This document shows, piece by piece, positions 63,597 to 63,632 of a DNA stretch of 64,000 nt (position 1 is the first letter of the stretch; each line of letters starts with the position of its first letter). The position numbers and the translations under genes are program-made. A model generated the notes under the pieces. It was not told the DNA's origin. It searched no databases and was given only the letters and a program-made list of their open reading frames with translations. The stretch is from Escherichia coli (GTDB taxonomy: Bacteria; Pseudomonadota; Gammaproteobacteria; Enterobacterales; Enterobacteriaceae), in the NCBI RefSeq assembly GCF_024223415.1, contig NZ_CP100500.1; one strand, given 5' to 3'.

Positions 63597-63632
63597 GATC
63601 GATAGTAACGATCGATACCTGTTTTATCGATC
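63597..63632 (-). promoter_or_regulatory. agn43-type phase-variation switch: three GATC (Dam) sites in the presumed OxyR-binding region upstream of flu
   Basis: GATC at 63597-63600, 63610-63613 and 63629-63632, about 220-250 bp upstream of the flu start codon. Confidence 0.65.

Follow-up and report, generated by a model that had tools for sequence, protein, structure and literature searches.

The three closely spaced GATC sites upstream of flu very probably form a standard agn43 (flu) Dam/OxyR switch of class B, one of two allele classes distinguished below, in which all of the cis-acting parts are intact, the gene that it serves is broken, and the switch survives through the recency of the inactivation. 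Such a switch is already known at this position, and the identification is correct but ordinary. The stretch of DNA analysed, referred to as the window, comprises the first 64 kb of an E. coli chromosome counted from dnaA, and strain E100341 is 99.6% identical to it over 23 kb. The features of the locus are collected in Table 1.

Table 1. Features of the agn43 locus in the window, listed in the direction of flu transcription.
Feature	Position	Strand	Remarks
yeeP-like GTPase gene, 3' end	63749..64000	-	Upstream of flu, cut by the window end; a GTPase family protein is also encoded upstream of agn43 in locus L001
-35 hexamer TTGCGT	63661..63666	-	Putative promoter element, by homology to K-12
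OxyR-like half-site 1, ATAGAATAAAACGAT	63630..63644	-	8/10 to ATAGnTnnnAnCTAT; over the -10, the putative transcription start and GATC-I; in both allele classes
-10 hexamer TAGAAT	63638..63643	-	Same in K-12
Leader RNA of agn43, equivalent of sRNA IsrC / Rfam IS102 (RF00124)	63398..63634 (237 nt)	-	Predicted; covariance-model match
Three Dam target sites	63597..63632	-	Transcription order: GATC-I 63632-63629, GATC-II 63613-63610, GATC-III 63600-63597
OxyR-like half-site 2, ATCGTTACTATCGAT	63598..63612	-	8/10; flanked by GATC-II and GATC-III
Leader intrinsic terminator hairpin	63411..63438	-	12-bp stem and U tract; kept in K-12
flu/agn43 5' fragment	63087..63379	-	ATG at 63379, 97 codons and 2 nt; 99.9% identical to the intact allele of 2017C-4173W12
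IS1397 (IS3 family, 1432 bp)	61655..63086	+	Transposase opposite to flu; 3-bp duplication TTG at 61652-61654 and 63087-63089
ISEc8 (IS66 family, 2442 bp)	59203..61644	-	tnpA, tnpB and tnpC in flu orientation; 8-bp duplication GCCGGTAT at 59195-59202 and 61645-61652
flu/agn43 3' fragment	56377..59202	-	Lacks 2 bp between 58183 and 58184, after codon 437
yeeR homologue, intact (838 aa)	53740..56256	-	838/838 residues and stop identical to the E100341 protein
irmA, intact (151 aa), third operon gene	53209..53664	-	151/151 residues and stop identical to E100341
Terminator-like hairpin just after irmA	53156..53184	-	12-bp stem and T tract

Location of the locus and model of the switch

The agn43 island (47200-64000) begins beside setC, on the chromosome's selC side, and its genes are of the usual CP4-44-like kind (cbtA/cbeA, radC, antirestriction and DUF932). 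No tRNA gene was found in the entire 64-kb window, so selC and the integrase end of the island must lie beyond 64 kb. Dam and OxyR are assumed to be present from the identity of the host as E. coli, both genes lying outside the 64-kb window.

In K-12, OxyR bound to the unmethylated GATC region represses agn43 (OFF) and Dam methylation stops OxyR from binding (ON); both states are heritable, with interconversion at ~1e-3 per generation (PMC3764049, PMC2909390, PMC4872104). Expression is further set by termination and antitermination in the IsrC leader, according to the passage of PMC5389530 that cites Wallecha et al. 2014. K-12 dam mutants are reported to be locked OFF and oxyR mutants to be derepressed. 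If the locus works as it does in the K-12 literature, a sigma-70 promoter would fire a few bases upstream of GATC-I. Repression by OxyR bound to the unmethylated region would be the OFF state, and exclusion of OxyR by Dam methylation of the three sites the ON state; each state would protect itself and so be inherited, with the possibility of a flip after replication. None of the predicted cis-acting parts at the locus is damaged: the promoter, the GATC triplet, the OxyR half-sites, the 253-nt leader and its terminator, the Shine-Dalgarno sequence and the ATG all have the same sequence as in copies whose gene is intact. The switch here can therefore presumably still flip and still make its leader RNA.

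The GATC triplet

GATC is found at 63597-63600, 63610-63613 and 63629-63632, with start-to-start spacings of 13 and 19 bp on the plus strand. All three positions in the flu 5' region, and both spacings, are those given in the preliminary description of this DNA. Because flu is on the minus strand, the spacing in the direction of transcription is 19 and then 13 bp, which is exactly that of K-12.

The clustering of GATC sites is not unusual by itself. The window holds 238 of them compared with 247 expected, chance would place approximately 1.6 triplets of at most 36 bp in a window, and four with spans of up to 37 bp were seen, three of them inside dnaA. These counts would allow the three sites of the switch to be a chance cluster of no regulatory meaning. 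We give this reading almost no credence, and comparison of the sequences already refutes it by homology. All three sites read CGATCG, for which 0.0006 triplets are expected, and they show exact positional homology to the characterised agn43 switch; in context, position and spacing, the GATCs of the switch are non-random. Both allele classes share the sites and their spacing, although these were required by the pattern with which the loci were harvested. The flanks that the pattern did not force (AATAGAATA, ATA after GATC-I and AT before GATC-III) hardly vary, in contrast to the 7-bp spacer between GATC-I and GATC-II, which differs. The Rfam match of the leader also backs the homology.

At the other end of the window, the dnaA coding region (654-1199) holds 14 GATC sites in ~550 bp, including other triple clusters at 789-841 and 1164-1199. 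This looks like the known GATC-rich, SeqA-sequestered dnaA region, and nothing new.

Homology to the K-12 regulatory region

The switch aligns to the K-12 agn43 regulatory region without gaps, with AATAGAATAAAACGATC, TATCGATCGTT, TATCGATCG and the 19/13 spacing in common. The -10, AAAACGATC (start), TATCGATCGTT and TATCGATCG match as blocks, and the terminator and Shine-Dalgarno region are shared. A MAFFT alignment with a 13-bp gap inside the switch was rejected as spurious, the ungapped alignment being correct. The two switches are alike in locus, in gene family, in the -10 hexamer TAGAAT, in the long leader with a terminator hairpin and in the upstream yeeP-like GTPase gene. The preliminary description had proposed alignment to K-12 as a check; the conserved blocks and identical spacing, together with the match to Rfam IS102, bear out its assignment of the element to the agn43 (flu) Dam/OxyR regulatory region.

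The window differs from K-12 in several respects. The 7 bp between the inverted arms at GATC-I and GATC-II are TCTATTT in K-12 and AAACAGG here, so the CTAT of K-12 is gone. Differences are also found in the 2 bp that separate GATC-II from GATC-III and in the bases beyond GATC-III, and the -35-proximal sequence is identical at only 60/107 positions in an ungapped comparison. The leader is 222 nt in K-12 and 253 nt here, with a diverged middle, and the structural gene is disrupted here.

Promoter and leader RNA

The predicted promoter lies directly upstream of the GATC triplet, with 17 nt between the -35 TTGCGT and the -10 TAGAAT, and the flu ATG follows 253 nt after GATC-I. Across 64 unique alleles, the TTG of the -35 and the CTC that precedes it are invariant, and AATAGAATAAAAC at the -10 is nearly invariant in both allele classes. 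A generic promoter scan reported nothing at the switch, where the promoter, with its weak -35, scores 8/12 against a scan cut-off of 9/12. The putative transcription start was placed from the K-12 isrC annotation and 5' RACE in EC958.

The K-12 annotation of isrC begins at the G of GATC-I and ends at the terminator, 28 nt short of the flu ATG. The leader in the window matched the full IS102 (RF00124) model, positions 1-206, with 73.2 bits compared with a gathering score of 46 (E = 4e-11). The RNA predicted here is ~30 nt longer than IsrC/IS102, with insertions in its central part.

Folding of the whole leader gave a z-score of -3.7. The 11-bp inverted repeat around GATC-I and GATC-II (63607-63635) is predicted to form a 5'-terminal hairpin of the leader RNA; the repeat was also called terminator-like on the plus strand by the scan, and its arms are kept in both classes. 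At 63686-63694, ~20 nt upstream of the -35, is a homopolymer that reads G9 on the plus strand and C9 on that of flu. Class B alleles carry it in lengths of 4-11, and several genome matches of 99.7% identity differ in it by 1 nt.

Two allele classes of the switch

Metagenome contigs were scanned for the GATC pattern, which yielded 120 loci; being conditioned on that pattern, the sample cannot measure how frequently the switch decays. Together with other fetched loci, these gave the 64 unique alleles, which fall into two classes. Class A, which is K-12-like, reads GATC[G/A]ATA-TCTATTT-TATCGATC, and class B, which is window-like, reads GATCGATA-AAACAGG-TATCGATC. The 11-bp inverted arms AACGATCGATA and TATCGATCGTT are common to both, and the difference lies solely in the 7-bp spacer and a few bases beyond it. 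Three loci (L058, L037 and L080) are class recombinants, in which the upstream region of one class is joined to the switch of the other.

The class B 65-bp core was present in 3327 of the 5426 complete E. coli genomes, at 4860 places, and the K-12-type core in 1236 of the 5426, at 1326 places, making class B ~3.7 times commoner by places. The agn43b allele of CFT073 is class A, and a scan of viral contigs found only one copy of the switch. Judged by its sequence, the switch in the window is a standard agn43 switch in the commonest natural allele (class B), not the K-12 allele.

OxyR half-sites

OxyR sites were scored against the consensus ATAGnTnnnAnCTAT-N7-ATAGnTnnnAnCTAT, a half-site out of 10 and a full site out of 20. 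In the K-12 register over all three GATCs, a 37-mer with 22-bp spacing that corresponds to 63634-63598 of the window, K-12 scores 14/20 and the window allele 10/20, because the CTAT between GATC-I and GATC-II is gone. Half-site scores of at least 8/10 occur at only 20 positions in the whole window, three of which are inside the switch. The putative half-site pair in Table 1 covers the -10 and all three GATCs, with the two members 32 bp apart, and both members are also found in K-12. It is the sole pair at 22±1 or 32±1 bp in the 64-kb window, with 0.006 expected. The OxyR-like half-site arrangement that the preliminary description anticipated around the GATC sites is thus found, in the form of two half-sites of 8/10, and from these we infer the register that OxyR would take on the class B allele.

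The lower score in the K-12 register could be read to mean that the class B allele, with its inner quarter-site CTAT replaced, is a look-alike and not a working OxyR/Dam switch, for example one that is locked ON; a search of the literature also found no direct experiment on this allele class. We consider this very improbable. Class B is the majority allele in E. coli and stands before mostly full-length agn43 genes, the 15 bases between GATC-I and GATC-II are almost invariant within the class, both half-sites with their 32-bp phasing are common to K-12, and the difference between the classes is confined to the spacer of otherwise unchanged 11-bp arms at GATC-I and GATC-II.

The agn43 switch, with class B read as a working allele, can be compared with Salmonella gtr and opvAB and with phage Mu mom. 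In these systems, likewise, GATCs lie within or beside the OxyR half-sites, with 13 bp from one GATC of a pair to the other and 32 bp between half-sites, and methylation and OxyR binding are mutually exclusive. The opvAB half-sites are 32 bp apart with centres at -148/-116 and -75/-43, and in gtr the GATC pairs 13 bp apart lie inside single OxyR half-sites (PMC2909390). However, gtr, opvAB and mom have alternative OxyR sites upstream of the promoter, where OxyR can activate, whereas agn43 has one repressor site over -10/+1; the sequences and the cargo genes are unrelated.

Disruption of flu

The flu gene carries three independent lesions, ISEc8, IS1397 and a 2-bp deletion. IS1397 sits directly beside ISEc8, within flu codon 98, and is 100% identical to full-length annotated IS1397 copies in other E. 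coli; ISEc8 is 99.9% identical to annotated ISEc8 copies. As it stands, the 5' fragment would encode a truncated product of 122 aa running into IS1397, and this signal-peptide fragment is all that an ON cell could make from flu. When both IS elements were removed in silico, the open reading frame still stopped at aa 454, and restoring the 2 bp extended it to 1039 aa. The length of this repaired frame and the 99.9% identity of the fragments to intact agn43 identify the downstream gene as an Ag43 autotransporter. The 3' fragment is 99.86% identical to the intact agn43 of E100341.

None of 5426 complete E. coli genomes contained either junction, IS1397/flu or ISEc8/flu, and the IS1397/flu junction was also missing from the GTDB representative genomes. 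Apparent ISEc8/flu co-matches (e.g., in H57) proved to be merely ISEc8 copies near another agn43.

The two elements inserted within 3 bp of each other in flu (59195-63089). IS1397 inserts into REP/BIME palindromic units, and the flu target GGCCTCGTTATCCGGCC loosely resembles such a unit.

Retention of the switch

The 381 bp of switch and leader are 100% identical (381/381) to those of three E. coli strains. In the one of these whose annotation was checked, 2017C-4173W12, the downstream agn43 is intact (3120 bp). Identity to 2017C-4173W12 is 99.89% over the 915 bp that begin with the flu 5' fragment, include the switch and run to the end of the window, and the distal flu fragment shows two substitutions and one indel in 2934 bp relative to the intact allele of E100341. 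At a divergence of ~0.1% from intact alleles, ~0.04 changes are expected in 36 bp. An unchanged switch is therefore the neutral expectation, and its retention tells nothing about selection; the switch survives through recent inactivation and not through demonstrable selection. The preliminary description had stated that the switch is conserved although the structural gene is a pseudogene. The lesions uphold the second part and the switch is indeed intact, but its conservation carries no weight, as the inactivation is too recent.

Among the pattern-selected loci, nine others have an intact switch before an early-stop open reading frame compared with 93 that are full-length, in a sample conditioned on the switch. 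The nine (L013, L016, L024, L033, L049, L058, L071, L080 and L095) have open reading frames of 82-644 aa, and some of the early stops may be assembly errors.

The agn43-yeeR-irmA operon

The genes agn43, yeeR and irmA form one OxyR-repressed operon, for which co-transcription was demonstrated in EC958 and CFT073; in EC958 the transcription start maps 228 nt ahead of the agn43 start codon, and in CFT073 IrmA is lost when an insertion lies downstream of agn43a (Moriel et al. 2016, PMC4807369). The window has the same arrangement, with agn43, yeeR and irmA in order on one strand and a terminator-like hairpin after irmA that is likely the operon end. The switch here is the promoter of an operon of which only the first gene is dead, a point that the preliminary description missed.

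The locus also resembles the uropathogenic operon (PMC4807369) in its intact yeeR and irmA and in its selC-side island, which is like module 5 of AGI-3. It differs in that agn43 is broken by ISEc8, IS1397 and a frameshift, so that co-transcription of yeeR-irmA from the switch is doubtful. The two genes are now ~3.9 kb of IS DNA further from the promoter, and ~6.7 kb of IS DNA and frameshifted flu (of which the flu remnant is 2.8 kb) lies in between. On this account, yeeR-irmA are probably silenced by polarity.

The operon bears on the question of whether selection keeps the switch, which would then still control the IsrC-like leader RNA, read-through into yeeR-irmA, or the co-oriented ISEc8 transposase. 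The operon is documented, yeeR and irmA are both intact and do not differ from their E100341 counterparts, the ISEc8 genes read in the direction of flu, the IS block contains no strong intrinsic terminator on the minus strand, and the sequence of the leader RNA is intact. However, the neutral expectation already accounts for the retention of the switch, and intact yeeR and irmA are equally explained by recency. The loss of IrmA production on insertion downstream of agn43a in CFT073 makes polarity likely here too (PMC4807369), and no documented independent function of IsrC was found in the literature consulted. Selection is thus an improbable explanation, and we retain recent inactivation as the reason for the survival of the switch.

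A second locus with the same architecture

A second locus, unrelated to agn43 and present in three versions, L063 at 2565-2605 (minus strand), L126 at ~4100-4135 (plus strand) and L128 at ~3100-3135 (plus strand), carries the arrangement GATC-N15-GATC-N9-GATC, with a -10-like TAGATT and OxyR-like half-sites of 9/10 and 8/10 that are 32 bp apart. The GATCs and their spacing are kept and the bases between them differ, L126 and L128 being ~81-82% identical to L063. The triplet lies ~225-270 nt upstream of a two-gene module encoding a membrane protein of 257-346 aa and a secreted-looking protein of ~117 aa, for which no Pfam, NCBIfam or PADLOC match was obtained. Homologues occur in 51 E. coli genomes, beside Lamassu, type II-A retron reverse transcriptase or type III restriction genes. 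Here a phase switch of the agn43 type may serve another cargo within defence islands.

Implications

The switch in the window is of little import for new biology, as it is a textbook switch in its usual place. Methylome studies of the strain should expect an unmethylated GATC sub-population at 63597-63632 despite the dead flu, which should not be taken for a new regulatory site. Strain typing by the presence of agn43 or irmA would give too high an estimate of expression here, since yeeR-irmA are cut off from the promoter of the operon. A more speculative suggestion, which we think unlikely, is that the orphaned switch may impose phase-variable transcription on a new cargo (either the stand-alone IsrC-like RNA or read-through that crosses IS1397 in antisense and enters the co-oriented ISEc8 transposase genes, perhaps also yeeR-irmA) and that, separately, class B may seat OxyR in a register other than that proposed for K-12, with half-sites 32 bp apart and one of them over the -10. 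K-12 is not representative of the switch sequence carried by most E. coli and, if the OxyR register of class B does differ, switching rates could differ from those of the K-12 model allele.
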